A stretch of DNA of 64,000 nucleotides. It comes from a virus. Lineage: Duplodnaviria; Heunggongvirae; Uroviricota; Caudoviricetes. The stretch spans positions 10,740-74,739 of IMG/VR virus record IMGVR_UViG_3300010362_000014; one strand, written 5' to 3'. Below, in pieces: positions 6,794-51,665 of the stretch (position 1 is its first letter; each line of letters opens with the position of its first letter). The translations under genes and the position numbers were made by a program. Under the pieces are notes generated by a model. That model worked only from the letters and a program-made list of their open reading frames with translations, was not told the origin of the DNA and did no database searches.

Positions 6794-7741
6794 ATGACAG
6801 CATATGGATGGGATACTTCGCATTACGATGATCCCCCCACGTCGCGTGATGGACTAAGTTTTTATACACATAAATGTACCGATGGTGCACATTTCTATGC
6901 GGATGCAGAGTATCAATCAAGTATGAATGCGGCTAAGAATCTAGGTATTCCGGTACTTGGTGCATATCACGTGCTGTGGGACTCGAACGTAACGGCCCAA
7001 ATAGATTGGTTTTATGAAAAGGTAAATACGCTTACTCCATGGTGGAAAACTCATCTTAGTCCTGTTGATGGGGAACTATATCCATTTATTTGGCAGTTAG
7101 ACTGTGAGCCCTTTGACTACAACGGCGGTAAGCCTAGTAAAACATCAATACAGAATGCAGTAAATTACATGCAAACAAAATATAATATAGAATTGGTGTG
7201 TATTGAGGGATATTGTCCGAAATGGGCATATCAAGATACGCTAACCGGATTAACATGCCGCCTGTGGGCGTCGAGCTATGTGAGCGGCTCCGGACCGTAT
7301 GAAGATTTATATCCGGGCGATAATTCAATACGTTGGTCTTCGTATTCCGGACAATCTCCGATTTTTCTACAGTATACATCTAGTGCGGTAATAGCGGGAC
7401 AAACAACATGTGATGCTAATGCCTATAGGGGTACGGAACAAGAGCTTATTGATTATCTTAGAGGAGGATCGGTGAGTACATTTTCTGACGTTTGGAAGAC
7501 GGATGCACTCAAAAATCCATATGGAGATTCGGCCACTAATCCTGTTATAACAGCGGAGACGTACCTTTATGATATCGCAAAAGATCTTATGGCTGTAAAG
7601 GTGAAAGTCGCCACTCTCAGCAATACTACCATTGATTATGATGCGCTGGCAGATGCCATCGTTGCGAAGCTTCCTCCTACGAGCTTGACCAAACAAGATG
7701 TAGTGGATGCCCTTAATGCTACTAAGCTCCAGGTTGGTTAA
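6794..7741 (+). CDS. GH25-family muramidase domain protein (tail-associated lysin or endolysin)
   Basis: N-terminus GWDTSHYDD...FYTHKCTDGAHFYADAEY resembles the GH25 pattern G-x-D-x-S-x-xQ...KATEG...D. Embedded among tail genes. Confidence 0.5.
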   Translation: MTAYGWDTSHYDDPPTSRDGLSFYTHKCTDGAHFYADAEYQSSMNAAKNLGIPVLGAYHVLWDSNVTAQIDWFYEKVNTLTPWWKTHLSPVDGELYPFIWQLDCEPFDYNGGKPSKTSIQNAVNYMQTKYNIELVCIEGYCPKWAYQDTLTGLTCRLWASSYVSGSGPYEDLYPGDNSIRWSSYSGQSPIFLQYTSSAVIAGQTTCDANAYRGTEQELIDYLRGGSVSTFSDVWKTDALKNPYGDSATNPVITAETYLYDIAKDLMAVKVKVATLSNTTIDYDALADAIVAKLPPTSLTKQDVVDALNATKLQVG

Positions 7742-10704: not shown

Positions 10705-10763
10705 GCAATCAATACTCTGGATAATCGTTTTCCTCGTCTTAGGGGGAAGTGTTGGATTAGTTA

Positions 10764-17494: not shown

Positions 17495-17694
17495 CCTACC
17501 TGTTCAATATGTAATGCTTTATTAAGACAATCACCACATCCGCATATTTCCTCGACAGACATCGACATATGACACCTATAACAATGATGTCGTAAATTTG
17601 AATTATTTTTTGTTCTTTTTCTGAGATTGTAAGTACAGCATTTGCATTGTGAACAATCTAACAATATATCTTCACCATTAATAGAATATGTCAT
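17461..17694 (-). CDS. small zinc-ribbon protein
   Basis: Multiple CxxC pairs (CSQCKCC...CYRCH...CGCGDC). Confidence 0.3.
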   Translation of the reverse strand: MTYSINGEDILLDCSQCKCCTYNLRKRTKNNSNLRHHCYRCHMSMSVEEICGCGDCLNKALHIEQVGWQWRIPPGTP

Positions 17695-17918
17695 TTCACT
17701 AGACTCGCAGAACTATTATCTCCAACCTTCAACGAAGCAAGAGACATTAATATTGACAATGTCATTGCACCAAGACCGAACCCTACTAAGTTCATCCAGG
17801 TTGTTTCAAATATATTAAAAGGGCCGGTGTCACTTACACCTAAATTTAGAAGTACTCCTTGAGCAAACGATTTGATTGCACGTTCAGCCAAATCCATCCA
17901 AAATTTCTTACTCCACAT
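17691..17918 (-). CDS. putative holin-like small membrane protein
   Basis: 75 aa with two hydrophobic segments and a charged C-terminus. Not assigned to any holin family. Confidence 0.25.
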   Translation of the reverse strand: MWSKKFWMDLAERAIKSFAQGVLLNLGVSDTGPFNIFETTWMNLVGFGLGAMTLSILMSLASLKVGDNSSASLVK

Positions 17919-36565: not shown

Positions 36566-36587
36566 TTTGCCTCCTATTTCTATCTTG

Positions 36588-36660
36588 CGCCCCTAGTAGG
36601 ACTCGAACCTACAGCCTACGGATTAGAAGTCCGTTGTTCTATCCCTTGAACTATAGAGGC
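36588..36660 (-). tRNA. tRNA-Arg (anticodon TCT)
   Basis: Hand-folded cloverleaf. Acceptor GCCTCTA/TAGGGGC, D stem GTTC/GAAC, anticodon stem ACGGA/TCCGT with loop CTTCTAA, T arm GTAGG-TTCGAGT-CCTAC. Confidence 0.75.
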
Positions 36661-36674
36661 ACTGAATCCATATT

Positions 36675-36968
36675 CTATCCTAACGTTATATTTGCTCCAT
36701 AATGACTACTAAGTTCTTCTTGATACATATCACGCTCACGTTCCATAGATTCCGCTAGCGCTTCGAAGTACTCTTCTTGTGTAATTATTCCCCTAGCCAT
36801 GAGGACTGCGACTAACGCCGAATGGTCCACCATTGCCGAATTTACACCAACTCTAAGATGCTTTGGCGATGTTTCTGCCCCATCAAGTTCCATCTTTGCT
36901 GTTACACCGGATTGCATCGCATGCAGAGCATCATGGTACCTTTGTATAGAGGATTCCATATCCGTCAT
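36675..36968 (-). CDS. hypothetical protein
   Basis: ORF. Confidence 0.3.
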   Translation of the reverse strand: MTDMESSIQRYHDALHAMQSGVTAKMELDGAETSPKHLRVGVNSAMVDHSALVAVLMARGIITQEEYFEALAESMERERDMYQEELSSHYGANITLG

Positions 36969-37222
36969 TCGCTCTCCTTCCCACCACCAGCATCAATGAT
37001 AAGCAATAGGTTATCAGGCTCGCCAAGCCTTTTCCACCAACTCTTCCTGATGTAAATTGTATCAACAACCGGATAAGTCTCATCATCTATGACGGCCTTA
37101 AACTGTACTGTATTCTTCGTTTCCTTCTGCCAAACCATAGTAACTTCTGCAGCACTTTTCATATCTAATCAATCCTTAGTTCCTTAGTTCCTTACATGCT
37201 ACAAGTACAATTCATTAGTTTC

Positions 37223-37972
37223 TTAATATGGTAGTCTATTAATCAATGGCATACGATATCCACAATTTCTACAAACAATACAAGAAACCGCCATCGTCGA
37301 TTCAATCTCTTTTTGTGATTGATACGACACCAAGCCACACCTACATTTGCGACTAATTATATCATGTTCGGACTCGTGTTTAGGTTCGGATAGAATCGCA
37401 TTGATATTTTGTAGAGGAAATTCCGTTTCTAAGTATCTGAGTCCCAGATAACACGGGACCTTATATAGCCCGGCAATATGCCGGAGTAGTGAACCTTGCG
37501 TATTATTACCACAAATGGCCGTAATTTTAGCATATTCGGCTCTGAATCCACTTTCACCTAATATTACCTTTCCCCACGCATCAAAGCATCCATATATTGC
37601 ATACGGGCTCCTACAATGCGCAAAAATATTAGTGGGATTATAAACACCATATACACCACAAGTGCAATCTATTGCAGGAGCAGGATGGTCAAAGTGTGGA
37701 TTATTACGATTCTTTCCAGAAGCGTACAAGCACCTAGCCTTTATTTTTGTAACTGGCCACTTAATCCGATAATCGTTGACAGACGTTAGATAGGAATATT
37801 CTCCCCATGAAGTATGATCCCATGGGATATGATCCCAATCCTGGGCATCCCAATAGGACTTCACATCAAGGTGTTGTAGCTTTGGCATCCATGCCCGATA
37901 TCCTCGTAGCTTGCCTGGGACTAATAATCTCTCTGGTCCGGTAAATGTCATTAGATATCCCTTAGATTTCAT
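37223..37972 (-). CDS. hypothetical protein, RGYR-W/GFRAE family paralog B with C-terminal zinc ribbon
   Basis: Paralog of 34915..35439, plus a C-terminal CRCG...CIVCRNCG. Confidence 0.4.
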   Translation of the reverse strand: MKSKGYLMTFTGPERLLVPGKLRGYRAWMPKLQHLDVKSYWDAQDWDHIPWDHTSWGEYSYLTSVNDYRIKWPVTKIKARCLYASGKNRNNPHFDHPAPAIDCTCGVYGVYNPTNIFAHCRSPYAIYGCFDAWGKVILGESGFRAEYAKITAICGNNTQGSLLRHIAGLYKVPCYLGLRYLETEFPLQNINAILSEPKHESEHDIISRKCRCGLVSYQSQKEIESTMAVSCIVCRNCGYRMPLINRLPY

Positions 37973-38396
37973 ATTTTTCTTTAAATCGGACCTGCTGGCC
38001 TCCCGTTACGCCTATTACCAAGCCCGTGATCGGTAAATTGGACTAAGTAACCAGCAGATCCTTTATTTTGAGAGGGGGAAATAATAGGTTAATCTAGAAT
38101 CCCCTACCATCCAGGGCGCCCGCCCAAAGTTTGCCTGTCAAGATTCGAACTTGAATTTTCAGATCCATGATCTCAGGCAAATACCTTAGACGCTGATCTT
38201 ATGTATAGAACATTCATTTTCCGGATCAAGCATGTCGATATATAGGCTACGCCCGGTTTCGTCATCTGGAATAAATACTATTGGACATATACACTTGGGA
38301 TTCTTAATTCTATAAATCATCTCTTGGACTTCATCGAGTCTATCGTGAATTTTATCGATATAATCTAATGAACTGTAATTAAATAAATCGAGAAAC

Positions 38397-38939
38397 CTAC
38401 GTAACCTTTGAAACATAATTTTCCATCGCTATCTCGAATTGTTCCGGAAGATCCCAACCTAACTCTATAAGTCTTCTTATTGCCTTAACTGTTGCGCCGG
38501 CGCCTTGACCGTCGAAAACAGCACTGTTCATTACGTAATCTAGGGCATCGGTATATCCGCGATCTATAACCAGGAACGGTAGCACATTATGAAGTATTAC
38601 TGCCATTGATGCGCCAGTCATTGTCCACTTAGATGTATTTACTATTCCGCCTTTGGCAAGAAATGGATATTCATCATGCATTGCCCATACATGCACATGA
38701 GGCTCGGGACAATGTTCGTTACATGCCCGCCGCATCCAATCCTTGGTAGCTCTCGACTCAGAAATCTCCGGTTTTGTTCCAGTAAGCGACGAGAGTTTGC
38801 GAACCACGGCAAGCTCTTTAGTTTGAACATATAAAGTTAACTGTCTTGTATTACGTGTTTTATTTCGTTTTTCGACAATTCTTCCTTTAAGGTCGATGAC
38901 TCCTGCCATCCACCCAAGCTGTTGAGCTGGAATACTCAT
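38397..38939 (-). CDS. hypothetical protein
   Basis: ORF. Weak resemblance to LAGLIDADG (GWMAGVIDLKG) is not relied on. Confidence 0.25.
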   Translation of the reverse strand: MSIPAQQLGWMAGVIDLKGRIVEKRNKTRNTRQLTLYVQTKELAVVRKLSSLTGTKPEISESRATKDWMRRACNEHCPEPHVHVWAMHDEYPFLAKGGIVNTSKWTMTGASMAVILHNVLPFLVIDRGYTDALDYVMNSAVFDGQGAGATVKAIRRLIELGWDLPEQFEIAMENYVSKVT

Positions 38940-39477
38940 GTCTTCTCAATCTTATTTTCCGTCTTCCAAGAATTGAAGGTATCACTGGATACCCTTCTGG
39001 GTATCATTACATCACCATATACATACATGAGCAGCCAATACTCACCGCACTCACACTGCCAAATAGTTCTATCTTCTCTATTGCTGATTCCTGATACATC
39101 GCACTTATGCAATTTTCCTATTATCTTACCGCTCATTTGCCCATCTTCTTTAACAGGACCTGTGATAGTATAACTTTCAGGCGATTCTTTTTCTCATCAT
39201 CATCGAGATGAATGCCAGAATTATCTATAGCGTATGATAATGCTAGATCCAATAACTGCAAGTCCTGGTAATCCAGATTCGCAAGCTTGTATCGTTTACC
39301 GATCATTCATGCCTCGATCTACTTTTCATTTTTTCTTGTATTTTCACTATCCGATCTAGATCTACAGGTAGCGTAGATCTAAACTCTACCGGAGCATAGT
39401 TGAAATAGAAGTCTATGATACTTACGAGTGCCCTTACATCATCTTTGGTTAAACTTAAACTCAATCTATCGGTCATG

Positions 39478-39551
39478 TGGGACAGGTGAGACTTGAACTC
39501 ACGATTACCATTTTATAAGAATGGGGCCTTAACCATCTTGGCCACTGTCCC
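39478..39551 (-). tRNA. tRNA-Ile (anticodon TAT)
   Basis: Hand-folded. Acceptor GGGACAG/CTGTCCC, anticodon stem CCATT/AATGG with loop CTTATAA, T arm GTGAG-TTCAAGT-CTCAC. Confidence 0.65.
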
Positions 39552-39862
39552 TGGGCTAGCCTAAGCTAGCTTTTAATCATATAAATGCTTGTATTTCCGT
39601 CTAACTTGGCGTCTAATCTTACGCTTAAGTCTAAAAACTCTAAACTTTCGTAACAGGTAGTATCCATATGCTACTATAATTATCATAGTAGCAACAAATA
39701 CAGCCTGGAGTACGCTCACTTACGCTTCTTCGATTTTGACAAAAAACTCGGTGCCATCTTGTGTTTCCACCGCGATCTCGTTTTCACTAATGATTTCAAC
39801 AGTGTTGAGTTGATTTGAATCAAGTAGAAGACTCTCCAATTCCCTAAGTAGCTGCTTTAACG

Positions 39863-40342
39863 TCATCTTAGACAACCAATCTGTTCGACCTTCTCAGATA
39901 GCGTAGGAGCCTGTCTCGGAACATCAGGTGGCTTGACTAGCTTTGCCTTGAAAGCATTTGCAAGTTCGGCATTGTATCTAGCCTGTATGCTATTGTAGTT
40001 TGCTTCTCGCGCTAATGTTTGCGAAACTCGCTGTACTTTGATAGCCGGATCTGTCTCTGCATCTTCGGCCTTCTTAGCCGAACACCAATTCAGCGCCGAT
40101 GCCGTCAATGACTTATCGTAGGTGTAAGCAAAATCCCATTCAGAACTGACATGCTGTGGACTTATGATGTTTGCACCCGTGCTAAACCAACCACTAAGTA
40201 ATCCGATTACGGTAAATATTATACCAAAAATCAGAAATACTCCAATAGTTTTAAAGAGTAATCCAATTGGAGTCTGACGACGAAACCACCCAACTTCAGA
40301 CGAGTACTCATCGTCATGCATTTGTCCGAATGTTCTACCCAC
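39863..40342 (-). CDS. membrane protein
   Basis: N-terminal TM helix (IGVFLIFGIIFTVIGLLSGWF). Confidence 0.35.
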   Translation of the reverse strand: MGRTFGQMHDDEYSSEVGWFRRQTPIGLLFKTIGVFLIFGIIFTVIGLLSGWFSTGANIISPQHVSSEWDFAYTYDKSLTASALNWCSAKKAEDAETDPAIKVQRVSQTLAREANYNSIQARYNAELANAFKAKLVKPPDVPRQAPTLSEKVEQIGCLR

Positions 40343-40988
40343 TATGCACCAACCCTAGCAGTGCCGCCGCAGCAGGACATGGTGAGTCTGGCCTTGGATC
40401 TTTTGCCCTACACTTCTTTAATTCCGTCTGAACTTGTGCATCAATCGTATGCAAATCTACACCAGATGATACGGTAATATCAATCTTTGTAGACTGTTTT
40501 TGAATCACATCTGGAACATTGGTGCAATACATTTCTAGATTTGTAAAATCGTGATAGTTCCCGGCAGGGTCATATCCATATCTATATTCAGAACTTGTTC
40601 CATACATGCCTTGATCGTCAGGCAGTTCAGGATTGTACTTATATAGATAAGTGTTGTTATCTCCGTTATCGACCTCAGTAGTTGGCTTAGGCCGCTTATT
40701 GCTTGATGTTAACTTTCCAGCAATTGGCACTGTAAATGCTGCTGCATTTGGATTAGATGGATATGCAGTACACCAAATTAGTGCTGATGGATCATCAGAT
40801 TGAATGAGACGTGCGTTGTAATTGTGACCTTCGACATCATTCTTTGGTATATAATTCTTTCGATTATCTGCTACGTCCTTCGCTGTTGGGTTTTTAACAG
40901 TGTTATCCGATGTGCAAGCGCAACTAACCGTCAATAAAATTGGGATAGATGCTACTGCCACAATTTTCATCAATCTCGCAATGTTCAA
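40335..40988 (-). CDS. putative lipoprotein
   Basis: Signal peptide with a lipobox-like LTVSC(AC). Confidence 0.4.
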   Translation of the reverse strand: MNIARLMKIVAVASIPILLTVSCACTSDNTVKNPTAKDVADNRKNYIPKNDVEGHNYNARLIQSDDPSALIWCTAYPSNPNAAAFTVPIAGKLTSSNKRPKPTTEVDNGDNNTYLYKYNPELPDDQGMYGTSSEYRYGYDPAGNYHDFTNLEMYCTNVPDVIQKQSTKIDITVSSGVDLHTIDAQVQTELKKCRAKDPRPDSPCPAAAALLGLVHSG

Positions 40989-40991
40989 GTT

Positions 40992-41912
40992 CTATCCTTT
41001 TGTCGTTGGTACGTTCACTAATCCACTATTCATCATACAAAGACCGGGCGCAATTCCCATCTCCCGAGAATATTCAATACACTTGTTCTGGACATATTCG
41101 GGTGTTAGAACCGGACGCAGTTTGTCCGATACTGCCTTTTCCTTGTCAGCATTCAATCTCTGCTGATCAAGAATTCTCGATTGTAGAACAACATCCTGGA
41201 ATTTCTTGATGTTCTCTTCAGTCTTGGCGTCATGATGCACAATGGGAATAGCAACTGTATAAATTTTAATGCCAAATTGCTCAACTGCCTCAGACAGCCG
41301 CCGCTTCATGTCCTCTGCAAGTTTAGCACCATCGAACGTAGTTTGTCCAGTACGAATGTCAACTTGGGCCAATGGGTTATAAGTTGCAAAAGTAGCATTT
41401 AGGGCATTTTGAATTTCTAGATCTACAAAGTTTGCCTTAAGGTTATTAAAATCTCCCTTATATGTCTTATACAAAATCGGGGCCTGATCGCCTACTACCT
41501 GCCACTGAATCCGATTTTCTACACATGCAGTGGCAAGAGAACCGATACGAACTACCGTACAGCCATGATCCCAATCACCAATATGGTTTTCAGTGATCCT
41601 AGACGCATCAAAGTCAGCGACTCGCTGCCACGGCCATACAAACTTTAGTCCATTACCTGTTACGCGACCTGTTGGAGCGCTAAAACTAGTAACAATTCCA
41701 ATGTTGTTGACCGGTACTTGATAAGCACATGCAAAGAATAGAAAAATTACCGCGATGAATCCCAAACCTAATGATACAATTTTGCTGGTAGATTTCCATG
41801 GAATATCGTCTCTACGACTTCTTTCTTCATCTGGCTTCGCCTTAATCGCAACACTTACAAAAGCTACGGCTAAAATAAGAAAGAATATGAATGCAATGAA
41901 TTCAAATGACAT
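40992..41912 (-). CDS. SPFH/band-7 (prohibitin/HflK-like) domain membrane protein
   Basis: N-terminal TM segments followed by VPVNNIGIVTSFSAPTGRVTGNGLKFVWPWQRV, which is SPFH-like. Confidence 0.55.
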   Translation of the reverse strand: MSFEFIAFIFFLILAVAFVSVAIKAKPDEERSRRDDIPWKSTSKIVSLGLGFIAVIFLFFACAYQVPVNNIGIVTSFSAPTGRVTGNGLKFVWPWQRVADFDASRITENHIGDWDHGCTVVRIGSLATACVENRIQWQVVGDQAPILYKTYKGDFNNLKANFVDLEIQNALNATFATYNPLAQVDIRTGQTTFDGAKLAEDMKRRLSEAVEQFGIKIYTVAIPIVHHDAKTEENIKKFQDVVLQSRILDQQRLNADKEKAVSDKLRPVLTPEYVQNKCIEYSREMGIAPGLCMMNSGLVNVPTTKG

Positions 41913-42263
41913 TTGTGGTCGTTTTCTCCTTATTGTATTATAGCCCGATTTGACTATAGTAGGCCGCCAGGGTATTGATCCCTGTTCTCTAGATTAAAAG
42001 TCTAGAGCATCACCTTAATGCTTGCGGCCCAATCAAATTATGAGTTAAATGGATTTACGTACCCATTCGGGTCCTGCGTCATTAATATCATATTCGATTT
42101 TTCCTTCGACGCCGGTTATGCCTCTGAAAGCCGCTGTAGCAGGTTCATCTGGCCTATCCATTGTATTATGAAATCCAGCATTACGCTCGATTCTAACGTA
42201 TTCTTCTTTGGGAACTTCCATCCATTCCAAATCGGTTGAAATTTTTATAAAATATTTATTCAT

Positions 42264-42985
42264 TTATTCTTCTCGTTCCTTCTTGTGCTCTTCTTCAAAG
42301 AAGTCTACTACCGCTGCACCTGTACTCTGCCCACTAGCATATGATTTTGTGGCAGACCTTAACGTTGTAAATGTTGTATTATATGATGCAGCACTTCCGG
42401 TTGTACCAACGGTATTTGCTGCACCAACCAGGCCAACACCTTGACTCCAAGCATCTGCCCCGGCACCTAGATAAACGAATGTCCACTTATCGGTTGCCTG
42501 AAGCTCACTAATCAACTTGCGAACCGTATCAAAGTCATATTCCTGACTTGCATTTTCCAAGCCGTCTGTCTGGATAACAACAAGAACTTTATCATCGTCT
42601 TGTAATACGGTAGATTTACGGAATTCATTTATCGTTTTGCCTACCGCATCGAATAATGCGGTAAAACCGGCGGAACATAATTACTATTATTTAATTCAGG
42701 CACTTCAGCTGGAACCTTGTTCATGCATAAAGTTACAAAATCAGTATCAAATAACGTTGCCGTAACTAAGCATTCAGTTTGGTCCTCAATAAGACCTTTA
42801 ATATATGAATTGAAGCCACCTCGAACATCCTTCGCCACAGGCGACATGGATCCTGACATATCAGTGATGGTTAAAATATAGGTTGTCATATTATCTCCAT
42901 TCAATATTTTCCTTAGATGGAAAGAATGTGGGCGATCGTGTTTCCAGTTCACGAGTATCCAAAATATCTTCTTCCCAACGATCAA
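42264..42985 (-). pseudogene. von Willebrand factor A domain gene split into two ORFs (42641..42985 N-terminal part with the MIDAS motif DMSGSM, and 42264..42560 C-terminal part)
   Basis: The MIDAS motif is in the upstream ORF and the rest of the vWA-like fold in the downstream ORF. The two are separated by an 80-nt frame break. Confidence 0.4.
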
Positions 42986-43632
42986 CGATTTTTCGAATTA
43001 TTTCCATATCGACAACGCGAATAGCTCCTCGAAATCCGTCATAGTTAACATCGAAGACTTGACGAACGAATTTCATACGTGCTTCATTATCCATCTTTAT
43101 TCTCTTCTAATTTGGATTCGTATACAACTTCCGGAAGGGGCTCACGCGCTTCGTACATAATTTATTCCGTTATCGAGCCACATATCAAAGTGAATCGCCT
43201 GACCATCCGTCAAGTAGCAGCACAGCCATATACGATCGTTATCCATCCGTTCCATACGGAATGTCTCAACATAGTTTATAACGACATCATCGAGGCCGAG
43301 ATCATCATACCTTAGCGCAATTCGATAGTCATCACTCATCTTTATCCTTATTCGGATCTAATGAGTCGCTAGATGGTATTTTTGTAGTATTCACTTCTTG
43401 CCATATCTCAATCAGATGTCTAGCTTCGTCAATGGCAATCAAATGGTGATCAGGGGATCCTGCTTCATCACACAGGTCATAGTAGATCCGTAACATTAAT
43501 GGTAATAGCTTGTCTTGTGCTCGAAATACTACAACTGGTTCGTCATCCGCAATGGTTCCGCGTTCTGTTGTTACGCTTCCATATTTCGAATCAATTGCCA
43601 CTACTTTCCTCATTTCTCTTAGTACGTGTTTG

Positions 43633-43705
43633 TACCCCTGACAGGATTTGAACCTGCGACATGCGATTTAGGAAACCGCTGCTCTATCCACTGAGCTACA
43701 GAGGT
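43633..43705 (-). tRNA. tRNA-Arg (anticodon CCT)
   Basis: Hand-folded. Acceptor ACCTCTG/CAGGGGT, D arm GCTC-AGTGGATA-GAGC, anticodon stem GCGGT/ATCGC with loop TTCCTAA, T arm GCAGG-TTCAAAT-CCTGT. Confidence 0.75.
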
Positions 43706-43886
43706 AGTGCTAGAATGAATCTCATCGAGGTGGCACCTGTATCAGAATGCGCAACGAGGCTTACGATCCATTCTAGCTTTAGAAGCAAAATCTTAGCCTT
43801 TACTACAAGAGCAACCGAATACAAGACAATCGAAATTGCTTCTAGCTTCAATCGTCCGTTTTATGTATCTATATCGTTTAGATTGC

Positions 43887-43945
43887 TACATATGATGAGG
43901 TTATAACTACATATGATGAGGTTATAACTACATATGATGAGGTTC
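43887..43945. repeat. tandem repeat, about 2.8 x 21 bp (ctacatatgatgaggttataa)
   Basis: Read directly. Overlaps the stop codon of 43928..44305. Confidence 0.75.
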
Positions 43946-44305
43946 TAGATAGAAACGCCTCTTTGGTAGAGAACTTCCTATATGATTACATTTGTAGAAC
44001 GATTTTGCATTACAGCATGGGCGAATTCCATCAATCATGGTAGTACCATGTTCGTCAATAACAGAAATCTTGACGATATAATTTCCACCTTGACTTATTA
44101 TTATAGGTAGATTCTTGTTGTTCTTAGCTCTGCGCTCGGCGGCTTGGGTTAGTTTTAATTCATGACCCGTCGGCTCACCACGGGTACGGGCAGTTTTATT
44201 AGCGGCCTCACGAAGCTCCTGAGCGGCCTTGCGCTGTGCCTTACGAGCCGCAGTGTGCGCACGTGCCTGCGCCGCGTCCTTCTTTTTCGGTGGATTATTT
44301 GCCAT
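43928..44305 (-). CDS. basic (K/R/A-rich) protein, possible DNA-binding
   Basis: The N-terminal 60 aa are highly basic. Confidence 0.3.
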   Translation of the reverse strand: MANNPPKKKDAAQARAHTAARKAQRKAAQELREAANKTARTRGEPTGHELKLTQAAERRAKNNKNLPIIISQGGNYIVKISVIDEHGTTMIDGIRPCCNAKSFYKCNHIGSSLPKRRFYLEPHHM

Positions 44306-44766
44306 ATATGATCAATTCCTTTCAAGAATTATAGTTTTCTATTGATTCGTAATATTATTAAACCAATTAATACTCCTAAGATAAAGGCTATTGCATCAAT
44401 AACTATTCGTTCTAGAGTCATTTTATTACCGGCTCTCATAATCCGGCTAATTGGCTTTGGCTGCAGGAAGTCAATCCAACCTTATCCTTTTCGTGTATGG
44501 CAATCTGGCTAACTATCTCCATCGCTAACCTTTCCAGTCGTAAAATATACATTCTACGAAATGTATATTCTAGCCTGTCAGGCAATCTCTTTCGCCGCCA
44601 AGTAGTTGCCTAATCACCTTGATCTCCGCCAATCTCGGAGGACAAATCCTCTTTAGAAGTTAAAACATTACCCCCCTAGAAGATAAATCTTCCAGACTGT
44701 AACTGCGACGCATATGTTATTTATGCCTACACTATTAAGACTGACATATATTATTTAAGCATTTAT

Positions 44767-45249
44767 TTATGTCCTAATGCCTAATTTTTCTAATTCTATC
44801 AGATACTGCTGACGTACTGCTCGTGCGATCACGAAAATTTCTTCTTCATACTCCGGAAGGAGAGTTACATCTTCGAATTTCGGATCACTTCGCGATTCAA
44901 GAGCCGCCAACGATGTTGTATTGCTAAGATTCACGGCCACGTGTGGCACACCGTCCGGAATGAAAATAGACTCATATTTCCCATGAATCATGGAAATCCA
45001 TTTTTTATCATCAAAAATTAATGTTGCTGCTGTGCCCTCTAAACAGGTAACTATAATTTCACTATGCTCATGAACATGAGCCTTAGATACACCCCCAGGT
45101 TGCATAATGATTAACCCCTGAGAGATAAATTCAGATCCAGATGTTTCTTCAGTAATTAAAGGGTAAACCTTTTGCCCCTGTGGAGATGTAACCGGTTGAA
45201 TCTTGTGTGCTGAAATTATAGTTACTCGTTTAGTCATGGTTTTATCCAA
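44767..45249 (-). CDS. cupin-domain protein
   Basis: G(x)5HxH(x)3E ... G ... H ... N pattern (QPGGVSKAHVHEHSE ... PDGVPHVAVN). Confidence 0.5.
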   Translation of the reverse strand: MDKTMTKRVTIISAHKIQPVTSPQGQKVYPLITEETSGSEFISQGLIIMQPGGVSKAHVHEHSEIIVTCLEGTAATLIFDDKKWISMIHGKYESIFIPDGVPHVAVNLSNTTSLAALESRSDPKFEDVTLLPEYEEEIFVIARAVRQQYLIELEKLGIRT

Positions 45250-45638
45250 TCCGTTAAAGTTGCTAATTAGCTCATTCGTCGTCTACATTCATCTTCACCC
45301 AAATCGGATTCCAATATACACGATCCCATTGAAGATTACCATCTTCGTCATAACCGCGGAGAGTTATGCGTTTATTTTTGGCTCTCCATCTAATATTATA
45401 CGCGGAAAGGTTGACGACTTCTAGAACAACTACAGATTTGTAAAAAAGCTTAACTCTCATATTTACTTATACTCCACAATCGGTACAAAGATTGGTATCA
45501 AATTCTAAATCCTATCTTTTTCACCTTAAGCTATTACTCACGGTCAGCCCCCGGAGTTGTTGTTAAACTTCTCCATAGACCTAATAGCACCAGCCGGCTT
45601 TTGTATAAGGTCCGAAAAGATAGGGAGAAACGTGGCAG

Positions 45639-45721
45639 CGGAAGATAAAGGAATCGAACCCTCATGTTGTTAACATGGCACGGTTTTCAAGACCGATTGA
45701 GCACCTTGCTCGCTATCTTCC
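45639..45721 (-). tRNA. tRNA-Ser (anticodon TGA), type II
   Basis: Acceptor GGAAGAT/ATCTTCC with a G discriminator, D stem GAGC/GCTC, anticodon stem CGGT/ACCG with loop CTTGAAA, long variable arm CATGTT-AAC-AACATG, and a TTCGATT T loop. Confidence 0.6.
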
Positions 45722-45988
45722 TAATATGGTTCTTCATATCGTGGTATTATATCCTGAAATTGTATGGACAGAATATTAGACAAAATATTCTCCACTATTT
45801 TAGCTTACTAATAATTTCTGTCATATTCCTTCCCTAATAAATTTCTCATACTCTTTGGCTGCATCTAGTACCTTATTCATAAGCTGAATCGAATTCAGCT
45901 GATTCGCATTTCCAGATAGTGCTATTGCAGCTACCCTTAACGCGATAGCTCTAATTTTTTGATCTGTCATATCTAATCCAATCCAATT

Positions 45989-46050
45989 ATATTTATTCGT
46001 GATTTAGTCATAATCTTCCTATATTTATTCGTGATTTAATCATAATCTTC
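45989..46050. repeat. 30-bp direct repeat, 2 copies with 1 mismatch (atatttattcgtgatttaRtcataatcttc)
   Basis: Read directly. Intergenic, downstream of 46036..46329. Confidence 0.7.
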
Positions 46051-46329
46051 AAATCCTGATGTGAACTCATCAGGATTTACTTTTATAGCTCGACAAATTT
46101 TTACCCAAAACTCATTTGCATGTTTCGTACATAAATCTCGATGATGTTTATAGTTCACGCATAGCTCCGGATTTAAGTAAATAATAAGCTCTTGTCGATC
46201 ATCATTATCATCATATGGATCATCAGATATATCAGTACCACATACATCACATTTATATGTGGCTTCCTTGACATAAATAGTCTCAACTTTCTCGGAAATT
46301 CTGATCTGCCGACTCATACTATTCCTCAA
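46036..46329 (-). CDS. small zinc-finger protein
   Basis: CDVCG...C...H...C. Confidence 0.3.
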   Translation of the reverse strand: MRNSMSRQIRISEKVETIYVKEATYKCDVCGTDISDDPYDDNDDRQELIIYLNPELCVNYKHHRDLCTKHANEFWVKICRAIKVNPDEFTSGFEDYD

Positions 46330-46645
46330 GATTATTTGTTCGATCCGTATGTCTATCCACCCATGACCAGAAAAGGTTAGTATTACTTATGAGATTCAAT
46401 CCCCAATGACCATTCTTCATGTATCTCCACTGGGGTCTAGTTTCCGTTTTATGAGTTTTAGAATCCCATTTATATAATCTGCCATATCTAGGAATGTTAT
46501 TTAATATGCCAATTAAGTTGACAATTTTATCTTGAGTCCGTATACTACATTTTTCTTCAATTTCGTTCGCAACATATGTGATTATCGGTTGAGTTAGCTT
46601 ACGGGGAGTTCTTAATATTATACTTAATATACGATTGAAATTCAT
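46319..46645 (-). CDS. hypothetical protein
   Basis: ORF. Confidence 0.25.
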   Translation of the reverse strand: MNFNRILSIILRTPRKLTQPIITYVANEIEEKCSIRTQDKIVNLIGILNNIPRYGRLYKWDSKTHKTETRPQWRYMKNGHWGLNLISNTNLFWSWVDRHTDRTNNLEE

Positions 46646-47565
46646 CTCAATCTCGATCTAATCGGCAAGCAAGCCTCACCCTGCTCAGATATCAATCTAG
46701 ACATTGCCGATCTTTTAATCTTTGCACATCCGTTTATTCCCCAACCTGGTCCCCACGAATTATGTAAGATATAGCAATCTTCCTTGAGATTGATACCCTT
46801 GGCCAAAATACAATGTCCGCCGGCCAATGATCCTGTGGGCTTTATATAGCCATTAATATCTGGCTTGAACATTCCCGTATACCAATTTATGCCAAGAACT
46901 ACTGGACCATGGTATGCAATTGCAGATGCAATCTCTTGTTCGGTATCTGCCCAGTGATACGACAAATAAAAGCTTAATGATGTCAAGACTTTGGCACCAG
47001 CAAGTACAGAGGTGCCTTCATAGAAGGGCACGGCGCCGGGATATGCACCGCCTGGCCATTCATCATTTTGTTGGAATTGAAAATAAAGCGCATTATTCTT
47101 AATAAGATTTGATACCGTATCAAATTTGACCAGGACTGGTCTAGCTAGAAGCTCATGTGAAAATCCATATTGGACACATGTGCCTTCATTACCTTGGTCT
47201 AGATGATATTGGTTTACTTTACTAAAACCAACCGACCAAGTGTAAGACCTAAGTGGAGCTGCAACATCTATGATAGCCGATATTCTGAAATTCCGGCTAC
47301 GAATGTCGGATTGCAAGATTCTACCAAGACGAGGATCAGAAACTACAGATCCATCCTTCAGTCTGGTTCCAGTTCTAGCCATTCTGACCAAGATTCTATC
47401 AAATAGGACCAAGAATTCATATAATATAAAGTGACTACCCCAACGATTGGGGGACTCAGCCTGGGGACAACTGGTATAATCGTTGGGGTAGTCACGTCTT
47501 GTTGTTACTATTCGTAATCTGTCCAATTTGATATGATATTCTGGAAGAATTAATATTCCATGCAC
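46642..47565 (-). CDS. papain-like cysteine peptidase (C1 family-like)
   Basis: Order of triad segments: NEGTCVQYGFSH (Cys) ... GGHCILAKG (His) ... ILHNSWGPGWGINGCAKI (Asn-Ser-Trp-Gly...Trp-Gly). Confidence 0.5.
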   Translation of the reverse strand: MHGILILPEYHIKLDRLRIVTTRRDYPNDYTSCPQAESPNRWGSHFILYEFLVLFDRILVRMARTGTRLKDGSVVSDPRLGRILQSDIRSRNFRISAIIDVAAPLRSYTWSVGFSKVNQYHLDQGNEGTCVQYGFSHELLARPVLVKFDTVSNLIKNNALYFQFQQNDEWPGGAYPGAVPFYEGTSVLAGAKVLTSLSFYLSYHWADTEQEIASAIAYHGPVVLGINWYTGMFKPDINGYIKPTGSLAGGHCILAKGINLKEDCYILHNSWGPGWGINGCAKIKRSAMSRLISEQGEACLPIRSRLR

Positions 47566-47729
47566 GACATTTGGAAGTATAGCGAGATCATCGCGAAGAG
47601 CACCTTGTTGATATATTGAGACATCGTTTAATCTTTACCATCTAATTAAAGTGTATCATTTGATTAAGACAGGTTTACTAGAGCTCAATCCTTTTCACTC
47701 AGTAACACGCTCTCCCTCGCTATACTTCG

Positions 47730-47801
47730 AGACCCTGACAGGATTTGAACCCGCATAAAGACGATTTGCAATCGTCTGCCTATCCATTCGGCCACAGGAT
47801 C
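47730..47801 (-). tRNA. tRNA-Cys (anticodon GCA)
   Basis: Acceptor GATCCTG/CAGGGTC with discriminator U, D arm GCC-GAATGGATA-GGC, anticodon stem GACGA/TCGTC with loop TTGCAAA, and a TTCAAAT T loop. Confidence 0.65.
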
Positions 47802-48145
47802 ATAGTTGTCCGGCAGATCTAACTCCCAGAAATAAATCTTATTTCTGATCATGACTAGTCTTGGCTTAGGAGGGTGCTTTAACCAGACAACGTTGTACTA
47901 CCACATTGATGTACTCAGACCGCAGACCAGCGAGGGCCTACGTCTAATATTGTCCATTTTATTGTTCGTTATCCGTTTTATTATCCACAATTTCTGATGT
48001 TATTCTAGCATAATTCTGGAATTGACTATCTGTCAGGGTTCTAATCTTTTTACCAAGTTCGTTTTGCCGTCTAGTTAGTAGATTTTCTGCTCGAATAACA
48101 AGTCTGAAAGCCTCAACGGCATTTGCAACTTCAGGATCCATCATG

Positions 48146-48229
48146 TGCGGACGACGAGACTTGAACTCGTATGCTCTCTAGAGCGGAAACTTTTAAGGTT
48201 TCTGTGTATGCCGATTCCACCACGCCCGC
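48146..48229 (-). tRNA. tRNA-Leu (anticodon TAA), type II (bldA-like specificity)
   Basis: Acceptor GCGGGCG/CGTCCGC with discriminator A, anticodon stem GAAAC/GTTTC with loop CTTAAAA, variable arm GCTCT-AGA-GAGC, and T arm ACGAG-TTCAAGT-CTCGT. Confidence 0.7.
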
Positions 48230-48710
48230 AGTTATATATTTTTACTGGCTTTGGCGGGGAGGAGCCGATACCCTTCGACCCCTCCCCTTTTTCTCGGATA
48301 AGAAACTATGATTTTCTACCGAAAATTGGGTCAGTATCCCACCAACGCCGTTTAAAGATGCAAATCAATCTTTAAGACTTTGCGTACTGCCATTATACGA
48401 TTTCCCCATGGGTATAGTCTTTAGAGTATATGAATATAATTTTGCAGGAATGAATATAATTTTGGAGGGGAAACCAGGATTCGAACCTGGACACAAATGT
48501 CACTGTATGCATCTGCTCGATTTGGTGTTCGTGCCTTTGTTACCACGAGACTAGAGCGATAATCTCAATCTTACATGGATTTATTTTGCCAATTAAACTA
48601 CTGCGGCACGACTTAAAGCCGCAGGATGGATTCGAACCACCATCTAATCCTGATGAGTTAGACTGATAATGAGTCTAACTATGTAACCCGTGCGCTCTAA
48701 TCACGGGAGT

Positions 48711-49448
48711 CTATGCGAAAAGATATCCAAAGACTACGTTAGATACCTTGACATTATCAACTTCTGTTGAATTTGCTCGTTCTCTGGCTACCTTTACGGC
48801 ATCGGTAAGCTTACGTACTCGTTCAAGTAATTCACTTGAACGAGTAGCCGGAATAGCACCCGAGAATCGTGTGGTATCCCAATAGCCGACGAGCACGTCT
48901 TCTTGATAGGGCTGAACCTGAGCCGGATGTTTTTCGGTCGCCTCATAGAGCACAAAAGCTTTCGGTACTTTCTTGCTTTTAACAGTAGTAGTTACCGGGG
49001 AGCGGTATGTTCCGGTAGTAGAATCAAATTCCCATTCAACCGAAGGATCAAGAAGTGGAAGCTTACTAACGAATGTGCTAATATCAACCAGCTTCTTTTC
49101 CAAGAAGAGAAGATATGTCACCGGCACATTTGCTAATAAAACGGTGCCGTCGATGATAACATCGGCTTTAGCTGCTGTATTACCAGTCTCTAAGGTGGCC
49201 GTCAAATCGAAAAGTCGAGAAAGTGACTTTGATGCTCTATCTAAAAGATTATCTACCGTTATCTGAACCGCATTGCCCTCATTTGGATAGACATCGCCCT
49301 CGTCATCCTTACGACGATAGACTCTGGTCAGTCCGCTTAGTGGTTCTGCCCGCTGTGAATCGTGGTGAACTTTGGTAAATGATGTTTCTGCTCTGTTCTT
49401 TTCACCCTTAACTAGGGCGATAACCTGATTAAGTAAGGCCATTCTCAT
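48711..49448 (-). CDS. hypothetical protein
   Basis: 245-aa ORF. Confidence 0.35.
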   Translation of the reverse strand: MRMALLNQVIALVKGEKNRAETSFTKVHHDSQRAEPLSGLTRVYRRKDDEGDVYPNEGNAVQITVDNLLDRASKSLSRLFDLTATLETGNTAAKADVIIDGTVLLANVPVTYLLFLEKKLVDISTFVSKLPLLDPSVEWEFDSTTGTYRSPVTTTVKSKKVPKAFVLYEATEKHPAQVQPYQEDVLVGYWDTTRFSGAIPATRSSELLERVRKLTDAVKVARERANSTEVDNVKVSNVVFGYLFA

Positions 49449-49654
49449 CCTTATCCAATAACAATTTTAAATTAATCGTATGGTACATCGTAGCCTCGCC
49501 GGGAATCGAACCCGGTCTTAACGCAGACCGACAGAGCGCAAAGCTAACCAATACTCAACAAGGCCAAGCGGCTAATATAGTGGCAGGCAGTCCCACTCAT
49601 CCTGCACTTTGGGCAAGGGCTAATTAGGAATCCCCTCGCACTATATTAGCCTCG

Positions 49655-49728
49655 TGGCTGGTAAGAGAATCGAACTCCTAACGTCCACCGTTCATAAACG
49701 GATTTGACGCCTCACCCAATATCCAGCC
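49655..49728 (-). tRNA. tRNA-like gene, anticodon arm non-canonical (possible tRNA pseudogene or unusual tRNA)
   Basis: Acceptor GGCTGGA/ACCAGCC, D stem TTGG/TCAA and T arm AGGAG-TTCGATT-CTCTT are fine. The anticodon region CCGTT-TATGA-AACGG gives a 5-nt loop. Confidence 0.3.
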
Positions 49729-49841
49729 TGTTCTCGGGTAGCGAGTATAACGCTGGTGCCGGCCAAAATTCCCATACCCGAATAGGGGACCCTCATGAAT
49801 TTCACATATTTCCCCACCTTCTCAGATGAGAGTTCTATATA

Positions 49842-50258
49842 TTACAGATTTGCAACAAGTCCATTAGTTGTATCGGTCACGGTAATATCTACAAAACTAA
49901 CCGTCATGGGAGGATCGCAGCTAGGACTAAGTTCCGCAGTTAAAGTCAAGGTAAAGTCCGCTTTTCCGTTTTGTACCGGGAAATCGCCTTCTGCTGTAAG
50001 ATCTTCTTTGTTAACTGCTTTAGGATGGTTACCGCCACCGTTTATACATAATGCCGTAGCGCTTACTACAACATGAATTTGTTCTTCATCGCCGAGACCT
50101 GCTTCTTTGCCGACCACAGTCAATGTGGTGTCTGTTTGTGTTGCTGAGAAAGCCGAGTCGATGAAATGTGGACTTCCAGCGAACGCCGGGATTGGAACGA
50201 GCAGGACCATGATTATACCAGAAATCATGATTAGTCCGACTCGACCGATACCTTTCAT
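49842..50258 (-). CDS. secreted/exported protein with N-terminal signal peptide
   Basis: MKGIGRVGLIMISGIIMVLLVPIPAFA followed by a T/S-rich beta-like sequence. Confidence 0.4.
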   Translation of the reverse strand: MKGIGRVGLIMISGIIMVLLVPIPAFAGSPHFIDSAFSATQTDTTLTVVGKEAGLGDEEQIHVVVSATALCINGGGNHPKAVNKEDLTAEGDFPVQNGKADFTLTLTAELSPSCDPPMTVSFVDITVTDTTNGLVANL

Positions 50259-50296
50259 AGAGCCTCCATATAGTATATGAAGGAGAAATCCTTCGT

Positions 50297-50370
50297 GGCG
50301 GGTAACGGATTTGAACCGCTGATCTTCGGCTTATGAGGCCGACGGGAACGACCGAGCTTCCCCAACCCGC
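50297..50370 (-). tRNA. tRNA-Met (anticodon CAT; initiator, elongator or Ile-lysidine type not resolved)
   Basis: The 3' half GTCGGCCTCATAAGCCGAAGATCAGCGGTTCAAATCCGTTACCCGCCA closely parallels bacterial tRNA-fMet. Anticodon stem TCGGC/GCCGA with loop CTCATAA, D stem GGAA/TTCC. End coordinates are +/-2 nt. Confidence 0.6.
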
Positions 50371-50494
50371 TTTGAGGTAGTCAATTAGATTGCCTACCGA
50401 ACTGCGCCACCCCGCTTTGGATTAATTCACGGTATTATTTATACTATAATCTTTGATTAATATTATGTGATTGAATCGAATACTTATATTTGCT

Positions 50495-50749
50495 TTACCA
50501 CCATAGCCACTGCGCGATATGACGGTGTTGATAAGATGGCGTTTCTATATCAGTTTCACTGTTTGCTCTATAATCCTTGATTGCATTTACTACATCTATG
50601 CGCACCTTCGCACGCTGCGGGCCGTACCATACGTGATTTATGTACCATTTCGGTGGGCTTCGAAACCAATGATATGGATAGACTTCTCTGTTTCTAAGAC
50701 GATATGGTACATCTTTGTCTGTTCTGGACATAACGTAGGCTCCTTTCAT
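50495..50749 (-). CDS. hypothetical protein
   Basis: ORF. Confidence 0.25.
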   Translation of the reverse strand: MKGAYVMSRTDKDVPYRLRNREVYPYHWFRSPPKWYINHVWYGPQRAKVRIDVVNAIKDYRANSETDIETPSYQHRHIAQWLWW

Positions 50750-50764
50750 GAACCTTACGTCATA

Positions 50765-51109
50765 TCAATCACCTCCAAGGTCTATATTACCATGAACTGA
50801 ACACGCCTCTTTAGGACAAAGGAAATTGTCATCATCAGGCCATAGTTTATTCGCTACTTCGCAGGGATTAGAAATTGGTTGTCTATAACGAAGTTTTTCG
50901 TATTTACATTCCAGACTCATGGCTGCGGATATTATACGCCATCCTATGTAATCCAAGAATTGAATTTTATAGGGTAGTTTCATTAATGAATTACATTGCG
51001 AACACAATATTTTTTCTGTTAGATACGAAACCGTGAGAGCCCAAAATGGAACATCGACAATTCTAATATCGGCGCCATCTTTATGATATGATACGTGAAC
51101 CTTTAGCAT
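50765..51109 (-). CDS. hypothetical Cys-rich protein
   Basis: ORF. Confidence 0.3.
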   Translation of the reverse strand: MLKVHVSYHKDGADIRIVDVPFWALTVSYLTEKILCSQCNSLMKLPYKIQFLDYIGWRIISAAMSLECKYEKLRYRQPISNPCEVANKLWPDDDNFLCPKEACSVHGNIDLGGD

Positions 51110-51120
51110 ATAAAACCCCT

Positions 51121-51194
51121 ATTTAACCCCAACTAGACACAGATTGTGGTTTAACTAACCCTACCGCCCATGGAGATCTGTGTCTAGTTGGGGA
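51121..51194. terminator. perfect 18-bp inverted repeat hairpin (CCCCAACTAGACACAGAT ... ATCTGTGTCTAGTTGGGG)
   Basis: Read directly from the sequence, immediately upstream of (5' to) the minus-strand gene 50765..51109. Terminator versus operator role is unresolved. Confidence 0.4.
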
Positions 51195-51590
51195 GTGTAT
51201 CATTTCTGTATACTTTGGTACATATTAATTATGTGTGGGACCAGGCCAATCATATGTCGGGCCGGGCCAGTCAGTGAATTCCCAATCCATAATAATCCTT
51301 AAAGTTAACATTAATATTATAGCCGCTTTACATTACGTTGGGTTCTCCACGAATGGATTTACAATTCAGACTTTTTGGGTCTAATGAGCCTCAATTATAA
51401 AGGGAAATAGGTGTGGTGGTGCCATTCCTAACCCCTACCTGTAAAAAGCTACCTTATTCATCCTAAGCTTGTTCTTAATTTATCCTAAATCAAGCCCCGC
51501 ACGAAAGGAATACATTATTCAATCGCAGAGGTTTAAACAAGCTCCTGTCCGGCATTTGTATAGGATCCGAAAGATAGCAAAACGTGAACG

Positions 51591-51665
51591 AGCCTTGCGT
51601 GAGGTTCGAACTCACAACCTAATCCCTACAATGGATTTGCTCTGACCAATTAGAGCTAGCAAGGC
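51591..51665 (-). tRNA. tRNA-Thr (anticodon TGT)
   Basis: Acceptor GCCTTGC/GCAAGGC, D arm GCTC-TAATTGGTCA-GAGC, anticodon stem AATCC/GGATT with loop ATTGTAG, T arm GTGAG-TTCGAAC-CTCAC. Confidence 0.75.

Follow-up and report, generated by a model that had tools for sequence, protein, structure and literature searches.

The locus and its peptidase gene

The 64,000-nucleotide stretch of DNA analysed here (the window) spans positions 10,740 to 74,739 of the IMG/VR record IMGVR_UViG_3300010362_000014, a virus of the Caudoviricetes, and encodes a papain-family cysteine peptidase whose identity and possible role are our subject. Genes for the tape measure, Dit and tail proteins lie on the plus strand between 1 and 17 kb. 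On the minus strand, read from ~64 kb to 17.5 kb, an accessory region with an RNA ligase gene, 11 tRNA genes and many small open reading frames (ORFs) is followed by genes for a helicase, an exonuclease, a primase and a DNA polymerase. The mechanically called ORF 46642..47565 on the minus strand reads as 307 aa from a GTG codon, and its translation holds all three catalytic segments quoted in an earlier note on this DNA, in papain order: DQGNEGTCVQYGFSH, then GGHCILAKG, then HNSWGPGWG.

The true start is almost certainly the ATG at 47382. We moved the start to this codon because the resulting 246-aa product is an exact match to a called database protein (P0001), because the homologues, 230–260 aa in length, start 2–7 residues ahead of the conserved ‘LKDG’, and because the 61 codons from GTG to ATG have a counterpart in no homologue. 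A Shine-Dalgarno motif is absent at both codons, as it is for about one third of the window’s confident genes, and a promoter and terminator scan around the peptidase gene returned nothing exceeding shuffled expectation. Residue numbers below refer to the 246-aa protein, for which the following features were mapped.

46642..47382, minus strand: xylellain-type cysteine peptidase gene of the papain family (C1A), 246 codons and a stop; most likely the true coding sequence
47383..47565, minus strand: the part of the mechanical ORF between its GTG and the ATG, in frame, probably an untranslated leader; no homologue has it and no Shine-Dalgarno motif precedes it
47245..47361, minus strand: conserved family-specific N-terminal segment, aa 8–46, LKDG..DPRLGRI.Q.D.RSRNF; possibly a short xylellain-like pro- or regulatory segment
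47176..47196, minus strand: Gln63 of the oxyanion hole (47194–47196) to catalytic Cys69 (47176–47178), motif DQGNEGTC; both invariant, with Cys opening the central helix in the predicted model
47035..47052, minus strand: GGAYPG segment, aa 111–116; conserved, and taken to be the counterpart of the papain substrate-binding strand
46753..46815, minus strand: catalytic His190 (46813–46815, GGHC) and Asn208-Ser209-Trp210 (46753–46761, HNSWGPGWG), aligned to the His and Asn-Ser-Trp region of cathepsin B

Assignment to the papain family is supported by searches of several kinds, with similarity well outside what chance would give. The Pfam family PF00112 (Peptidase_C1) matches with E = 1.6e-8 and 35.3 bits against a gathering score of 20.7, the match being confined to profile positions 121–206 in the C-terminal half of the peptidase; as several members of the phage-type clade score below the gathering threshold, we regard the clade as a divergent C1A subfamily. 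The phage orthologous group phrog_16701, ‘peptidase’, matches aa 79–304 of the 307-aa ORF with E = 3.8e-46, and a phmmer search of PDB sequences retrieved cathepsin B with E ~2e-6, improving to 1e-12 with the family profile; an NCBIfam search of the peptidase returned no match. In an alignment of 35 homologues with 45–57% identity (A1), Gln63, Cys69, His190, Asn208, Ser209 and Trp210 are invariant. The Gln lies six residues upstream of the Cys, at which the helix 69–78 starts in the predicted model. In the GGAYPG segment of the same alignment, which we take to be the counterpart of the papain Gly65-Gly66-Tyr-Pro substrate-binding strand, G111 is invariant and G112, Y114, P115 and G116 are at least 90% conserved. 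The catalytic residues follow the order Cys-His-Asn; one distant homologue, DrLupo, carries Gln for Asn.

Structural statements here rest on a predicted model, in which the fold appears as the two-lobed papain type and resembles C1A more closely than C1B or any other family of clan CA; its best matches are xylellain and zymogen forms. The earlier proposal of a papain-like C1 peptidase is thus borne out by agreement between the Pfam, PHROG, PDB and profile searches and the invariant catalytic residues, and the outcome that was to have overturned it, placement in an unrelated fold, did not occur, as hidden Markov model, profile and fold searches all led to C1A. In enzymes of this type, a Cys thiolate and His imidazolium pair (Cys69 and His190) attacks the peptide bond, Asn208 orients the His, Gln63 makes the oxyanion hole, Trp210 shields the Cys-His pair, and the substrate is bound by its backbone to the strand of Gly111 and Gly112. 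The protein lacks a hydrophobic segment and a signal peptide, its maximum 19-residue hydropathy (KD19) being 1.02. At the level of the predicted protein, we regard it as established that the catalytic apparatus is complete and that the peptidase is cytoplasmic at synthesis. With very high confidence, judged from sequence, the gene encodes a 246-aa, single-domain, signal-less cysteine endopeptidase of MEROPS C1A type, in the short ‘xylellain-type’ prokaryotic form, belonging to a large clade found mainly in tailed phages.

Compared with known systems, the peptidase shares the Gln-Cys...His...Asn-Ser-Trp arrangement and the two-lobed fold with cathepsins B, L and K and papain, but lacks their signal peptide, I29 (ERFNIN) prodomain and occluding loop, as well as the conserved disulfide cysteines of secreted papains (‘CGSC’ is replaced by ‘EGTC’). 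Identity to xylellain from Xylella fastidiosa (PDB 3OIS), the archetype of the short prokaryotic C1A enzymes, is ~20%; xylellain is encoded by a bacterial chromosomal gene, whereas the phage clade has its own N-terminal motif (R21, D26, S29) and the segment YEGTSVLAG.

The N-terminal part of the protein differs from what had been expected. The earlier note suggested a pro-region of about 120 aa; read from the ATG, only 68 residues precede the catalytic Cys, and Inhibitor_I29 gave no match in the Pfam search even at E ≤ 1. The ~100-aa I29 prodomain of cathepsin-L-like zymogens, with its ERFNIN and GNFD motifs, was rejected on both grounds. Instead, the first ~45 residues form a conserved segment specific to the family, in which L19 and R21 are invariant in A1 and R21, D26 and S29 are invariant in relatives down to 27% identity. 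Because this segment is kept when the C1 domain lies within multidomain proteins, including fusions to a glycoside hydrolase family 25 (GH25) domain, we regard it as a part of the domain rather than a classical propeptide. By the predicted model, it may represent a short xylellain-like pro- or regulatory segment; the xylellain pro-segment reportedly occupies the active-site cleft.

Distribution and gene context of the family

C1 peptidases had been described in the earlier note as dominated by eukaryotes and rare in phages, a description that the counts contradict. A profile search run exhaustively over 1.84 billion cluster representatives recovered 1,484 clusters at 50% identity with E ≤ 1e-30 (3,580 with E ≤ 1e-10), a pattern scan found the family on 236 IMG/VR contigs, and tblastn found it in 51 isolate phage records, comprising phages of Mycobacterium, Gordonia, Streptomyces, Arthrobacter, Stenotrophomonas and Xanthomonas. 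The host range is broad, with both Gram-positive and Gram-negative bacteria represented. Among 185,579 species-representative genomes, by comparison, only ~40 have a clear full-length relative; these belong to several phyla without pattern and are often contigs of metagenome-assembled genomes. The clade is thus predominantly phage-borne. The nearest viral structures in BFVD are phage proteins already named ‘Peptidase C1A’, and the isolate-phage genes are annotated as ‘peptidase’, ‘cysteine protease’ or ‘papain family cysteine protease’. A 2023 survey places C1A peptidases in nearly all bacterial and archaeal phyla and describes horizontal acquisition of short xylellain-type C1A genes by Myoviridae and Siphoviridae (PMC10380794). 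The identification of the gene is in this sense ordinary, the family being present in that survey and in PHROGs, RefSeq and SEA-PHAGES (‘peptidase’, ‘cysteine protease’, ‘C1 family peptidase’). With its nearest isolate relative at 39% identity and its nearest metagenomic relative at 58%, the peptidase adds a divergent member to a family that is known and already annotated. Our literature search found no functional study or published assay of any phage member.

Independent domain fusions within the clade point to the bacterial cell wall. In the fused proteins, the C1 part is 38–50% identical to the window peptidase over its full length, and the Pfam assignments are Glyco_hydro_25 with C1 (P0139 and P0226), Glyco_hydro_25 with G5 and C1 (P0149), VanY with C1 (P0221) and C1 with PG_binding_1 (P0121); C1 is joined to SLH in three further proteins (P0049, P0109 and P0142). 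The locus of one SLH-fused homologue shows no obvious lysis cassette. Several catalytic and wall-binding modules without a signal peptide constitute, by analogy, the architecture of a modular endolysin. In the GH25-C1 proteins P0139, P0149 and P0226, the C1 half has 39–42% identity to the window protein along its whole length, and in P0139 and P0149 the modules are separated by a Pro-rich linker and a hydrophobic segment; the two modules form one polypeptide in these fusions and correspond to two distant genes in the window. Other long members of the clade carry hydrophobic or lipobox segments, SNase, DUF1353 or a Zn-ribbon-like tail. Three clusters (P0025, P0086 and P0208) have a common C-terminal extension, FHDSH.GI....Y....EA...G.RPC..C.P, which weakly resembles the Ada Zn-binding domain (21.6 bits against a gathering score of 23).

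An intein-like insertion of ~340 aa interrupts six of the 150 best cluster representatives; the window gene has none. At site A, the insertion directly precedes the catalytic Cys, which becomes the +1 residue (EGA|C...HN|CV; P0125, P0146, P0148 and P0242; window position 47176–47178), and at site B it precedes the YEGTSV motif (...GN|S; P0135 and P0165; window position ~47020). The P0125 insert includes a LAGLIDADG endonuclease domain. Inteins are unusual in a peptidase gene, and their insertion points mark the most conserved sites.

Gene context was surveyed at 80 of the 236 viral loci, where gene calls were crude ORF calls; the numbers given for terminase, portal and lysin genes nearby are minima, and lysin detection, by phmmer with a handful of seeds, was insensitive. 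All-against-all clustering of neighbours at 74 non-redundant loci yielded no family present in more than five of them. Four kinds of surroundings recur. The first is the lysis cassette. In the Gordonia phages Aleemily, GMA2, Lilbeanie and Sixama, the gene order is lysin A, lysin A, a soluble 125-aa protein, C1 and a holin with multiple transmembrane (TM) segments, and in Arthrobacter phage Mufasa8 it is holin, metallopeptidase, holin, C1. The C1 proteins of these phages (Aleemily gp29, GMA2 Orf38, Lilbeanie gp40, Sixama gp109 and Mufasa8 gp26) are 27–29% identical to the window peptidase over at least 90% of its length. These actinophage ‘cysteine protease’ or ‘peptidase’ genes share the catalytic residues, the N-terminal motif and the PHROG with the window gene; they sit in lysis cassettes directly upstream of the holin, and the window gene does not. 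Among metagenomic loci, one with a peptidase of 44% identity (L071) has the order TM-TM-GH25-C1-TM-TM, and another with 54% identity (L089) has GH25, a 4-TM protein and C1.

The soluble protein of ~125 aa always precedes C1 in the Gordonia cassettes (L085 4630–5013, L086 4606–4977, L087 4618–4989 and L178 3609–3980). It has no Pfam match, is called a ‘putative lysin’ by the GMA2 authors and is absent from the window; its solubility led us to reject it as a holin, and within that branch it might work with the peptidase or regulate it.

The second kind of surroundings is the packaging and head module. At least 16 of the 74 non-redundant loci have a gene of this module within 5 kb of the peptidase gene, without exception on its strand. 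The peptidase is encoded between TerS and TerL in three lineages. Stand-alone C1 genes occupy this slot in L065, L069 and L082; L065, L069 and L175 share a conserved 49-aa gene downstream. The GH25-C1 fusion P0226 occupies the same TerS-TerL slot as these stand-alone genes, so that a terminase-adjacent context is compatible with a function in lysis. The peptidase gene lies beside terminase and portal genes in L002 and in Streptomyces phage BillNye, and between the decoration protein and major capsid genes in L001, which also encodes a Mu-type prohead protease.

The third is the tRNA array. At least two tRNA genes fall within 3 kb of the peptidase gene in 14 of 84 loci, some of the arrays consisting of 12–37 genes, and tRNA density declines from 0.41 per kb in the nearest 1 kb to ~0.09 per kb at distances above 5 kb (5–10 kb). 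The loci in or beside such arrays are L004, L008, L009, L014, L022, L023, L030, L035/L040, L049, L073, L077, L081 and L082. Common insertion hot-spots at the boundaries of modules, or else a functional connection, may underlie this association. The fourth kind, early and replication DNA, is seen in cluster-H mycobacteriophages and in the two closest homologues. The closest isolate relatives, both at 39% identity, illustrate the variety: the ‘peptidase’ gene of the BillNye group (YP_009622657) adjoins a tRNA array as the window gene does, but follows the terminase, and the gene for a hypothetical protein of Caudovirales GX15bay stands alone on the opposite strand beside glycosyltransferase and glycanase genes.

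A candidate role in lysis and its alternatives

The window holds candidates for two further components of a lysis system, listed here with the surroundings of the peptidase gene.

6794..7741, plus strand: GH25-like, lysin A-type muramidase, 315 aa, a proposed functional partner of the peptidase; similar to the GH25 half of P0226, to lysin A and to phrog_3084
17691..17918, minus strand: holin-like membrane protein, 75 aa, a proposed release factor; 44–45% identical to annotated actinophage holins (535 records)
36587..51665, minus strand: dispersed array of 11 tRNA genes around the peptidase gene (ARAGORN; seven confirmed by Rfam)
46319..46645, minus strand: 108-aa ORF downstream of the peptidase gene, overlapping its stop (ATGA) and translationally coupled; no family match

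Over residues 1–218, the protein of 6794–7741 has 32% identity (E = 2e-18) to the GH25 half of P0226, a half verified by Pfam; it is ~25% identical over at least 90% coverage to the actinophage ‘lysin A, glycosyl hydrolase domain’, and matches phrog_3084, ‘endolysin’, with E = 7e-22. Pfam and PDB sequence searches gave no direct identification, and its GH25 assignment is based on this homology to P0226 and to annotated lysin A proteins. As the window peptidase is in turn 39% identical to the C1 half of P0226, two modules that are fused in P0226 and adjacent in L071 have their homologues in two distant genes of the window, a Rosetta-stone link between them. The protein of 17691–17918 resembles the Lilbeanie holin, has a hydrophobic segment and is encoded on the same strand as the peptidase. 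These candidate lysis genes are dispersed, the GH25-like lysin lying within the tail module and the holin homologue at the 3′ end of the replication operon. Isolate matches of the holin and lysin genes all come from phages of Actinobacteria, bar two Lactococcus phage records for the holin, and given these actinophage matches the host is probably a low-GC actinobacterium.

On balance, and with modest confidence, we favour a role for the peptidase as a cell-wall endopeptidase that depends on the holin, a catalytic module of endolysin type with a gene to itself. Three lines of evidence converge on this role: the fusions to wall modules, the synteny with lysis cassettes and the Rosetta-stone link to GH25. 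It is further supported by the composition of the window lysin, which consists of a GH25-like domain and a C-terminal region with no detected peptidase module, where many actinophage lysin A proteins or gene pairs include one, and by the location of the holin gene on the peptidase strand. Among the features expected of an endolysin, the absence of a signal peptide and the presence of a holin gene in the genome are found here, and the combination with wall modules is found in other members of the clade; the window protein itself is single-domain. Of the candidate roles listed in the earlier note, lysis thus gains real support from the fusions and cassettes, and virion maturation gains little.

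The proposed mechanism would run as follows. The peptidase would accumulate in the cytoplasm, where its N-terminal segment might, speculatively, keep it latent, as the pro-segment may do in xylellain. Permeabilisation of the membrane by the holin (17691–17918) would let it reach the wall, and there it would cut peptide links, in peptidoglycan stems or cross-bridges or, less likely, in wall-anchored proteins, complementing the GH25-like muramidase (6794–7741), which would cut the glycan strands. Other lysin modules of papain fold (CHAP, NlpC/P60, the ‘C39’ and ‘N5’ modules of lysin A, and the Pei pseudomurein endoisopeptidases) belong to different families. Kinship to N5 and C39 was rejected after hhalign comparison with the family profile gave probabilities of 0.2% for BetterKatz gp29 (N5) and 10% for Aleemily gp26 (C39), and in the Gordonia cassettes the C1 gene accompanies a C39 module of lysin A. 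Provided that the lysis role holds, C1A would be a separate type of module.

Several observations weigh against a role in lysis. The window peptidase gene lies outside any lysis cassette, ~29 kb from the holin gene and ~39 kb from the GH25-like gene, in an early or accessory, tRNA-rich region where its neighbours are soluble proteins and tRNAs and no membrane protein is adjacent. The closest homologues (P0002 and P0003) are encoded among helicase, UDG and small early genes, and in cluster-H mycobacteriophages the gene belongs to the replication arm. Recognisable lysins were found near only a minority of the sampled loci, and adjacency to membrane proteins is only mildly enriched (17% against ~9%). 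We know of no C1-family enzyme that hydrolyses peptidoglycan, our literature search found no paper linking Peptidase_C1 to endolysins, and the XacN1 homologue is merely listed as a ‘potential lytic enzyme’.

Were the lysis role correct, it would add a functional assignment, a C1A module in phage lysis, for a family of ~1,500 clusters (50% identity), extend the endolysin repertoire by a new class of enzymatically active domain, with relevance to engineered lysins, and establish that C1A enzymes act on bacterial cell walls. Experimental study of the family is warranted by the evidence for a lysis module, by the association with tRNA arrays and by the inteins at the catalytic Cys.

The strongest alternative, which we consider rather unlikely, is an intracellular effector protease of early or middle infection, acting on host proteins for takeover or counter-defence, or on phage proteins, and co-regulated with the tRNA and RNA-ligase island. 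The position of the window gene speaks for it, on the replication-gene strand among the 11 tRNAs, upstream of the helicase, exonuclease, primase and polymerase genes and with an RNA ligase nearby, as does the recurrence of homologues inside tRNA arrays and, for the closest of them, in early or nucleotide-metabolism regions. The lack of a signal peptide would also suit an effector, although canonical endolysins likewise accumulate signal-less in the cytoplasm. However, an effector leaves the GH25, VanY, PG-binding and SLH fusions and the synteny with lysis cassettes unexplained. PADLOC returned no match for the peptidase or its neighbours, no other defence-related match was obtained, and no conserved partner or substrate gene was found; the coupled 108-aa downstream ORF was rejected as a conserved partner, having no similarity to the downstream genes of homologues. 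The tRNA link itself may reflect insertion hot-spots only, since tRNA arrays, terminase and C1 genes co-occur at module boundaries (BillNye and L082). A more specific form of this alternative is in our estimate distinctly unlikely: an effector that stays latent in the cytoplasm, is deployed along with the island of tRNA and RNA-ligase genes, and cleaves a translation-attacking host protein (e.g., an anticodon nuclease or defence factor) or a host regulator. If true, the embedding of the family in tRNA arrays would reflect function, and phages would have their first papain-family protease for counter-defence or takeover.

A variant of the lysis role, which we judge improbable, has the peptidase degrade an S-layer or other wall-anchored protein at lysis in place of peptidoglycan. 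C1A enzymes are protein endopeptidases and the SLH fusions would place the enzyme at S-layer anchoring sites, but most fusion partners (GH25, VanY, PG_binding_1 and G5) are peptidoglycan hydrolases or binders in the pattern of multi-activity endolysins, and the hosts of the family are both Gram-positive and Gram-negative. Very improbable, in spite of the same-strand packaging and head neighbours, the L001 position beside the major capsid gene and the terminase and portal neighbours in L002 and BillNye, is a morphogenesis protease for head or virion maturation or a virion-packaged enzyme: the fold is papain-like and not of the HK97 (S78), ClpP (S14) or Mu gpI type, L001 has its separate prohead protease, the window gene is far from the structural genes, the XacN1 homologue is not among the reported virion proteins, and a GH25-C1 lysin in the same TerS-TerL slot accounts for the adjacency more simply.

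Neighbouring genes and further observations

The source phage is siphovirus-like and without a close sequenced relative. A search for nucleotide-level relatives in the phage collection returned tRNA matches only, and the DNA polymerase, examined as a lineage and host marker, has best matches of at most 30% identity, from unrelated hosts.

The tRNA genes nearest to the peptidase gene are tRNA-Cys (47729–47801), 347 nt upstream of the ATG, and tRNA-Ser (45638–45721). A tRNA-like gene at 49654–49728 (minus strand) was reported by ARAGORN as ‘tRNA-???’ with an undetermined two-base anticodon-loop call, and Rfam gave none at the gathering threshold. Between tRNA-Leu and tRNA-Asp in this island lies a gene for a full-length, strongly conserved DUF7873 protein (48711–49448, minus strand; E = 6e-96). 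Upstream of the array, the RNA ligase gene (57867–58508, minus strand; Pfam RNA_ligase, E = 1e-13) adjoins a gene for a 384-aa phrog_10079 protein (58548–59702, minus strand), and the pair may function in tRNA repair. On the same strand, the ORF 60391–61209 encodes a DhnA-type class I aldolase-like protein of the MJ0400/LsrF family (E = 2e-28 to PDB 2QJG) within a GC-rich patch at 60–62 kb (52% against ~41%); it is likely an auxiliary metabolic gene, recently acquired to judge by its composition.

The holin homologue at 17691–17918 adjoins a Zn-ribbon ORF and the ORF 17018–17494, the latter RuvC-like by eye (LSLDPGATTGYA motif). A cluster of envelope-protein genes occupies 39573–41912 (minus strand) and encodes an SPFH/Band-7 protein with two N-terminal hydrophobic segments (40992–41912), a predicted lipoprotein with the lipobox LTVSC (40335–40988), a single-TM protein of 159 aa (39863–40342) and a TM peptide of 48 aa (39573–39719).

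Three apparent paralogue pairs were recognised by eye: 53244–53603 and 53634–53981 (minus strand), sharing IKQRWIAALRSG.Y..G.GYLA; 34915–35439 and 37223–37972 (minus strand), sharing PG.LRGYR.W; and 8804–9643 and 9653–10471 (plus strand), in the tail module, alike at their N- and C-termini. A minor-tail-like protein (15869–17029, plus strand) contains ~15 tandem repeats of a ~22-aa unit with SEE(K/R)FG.

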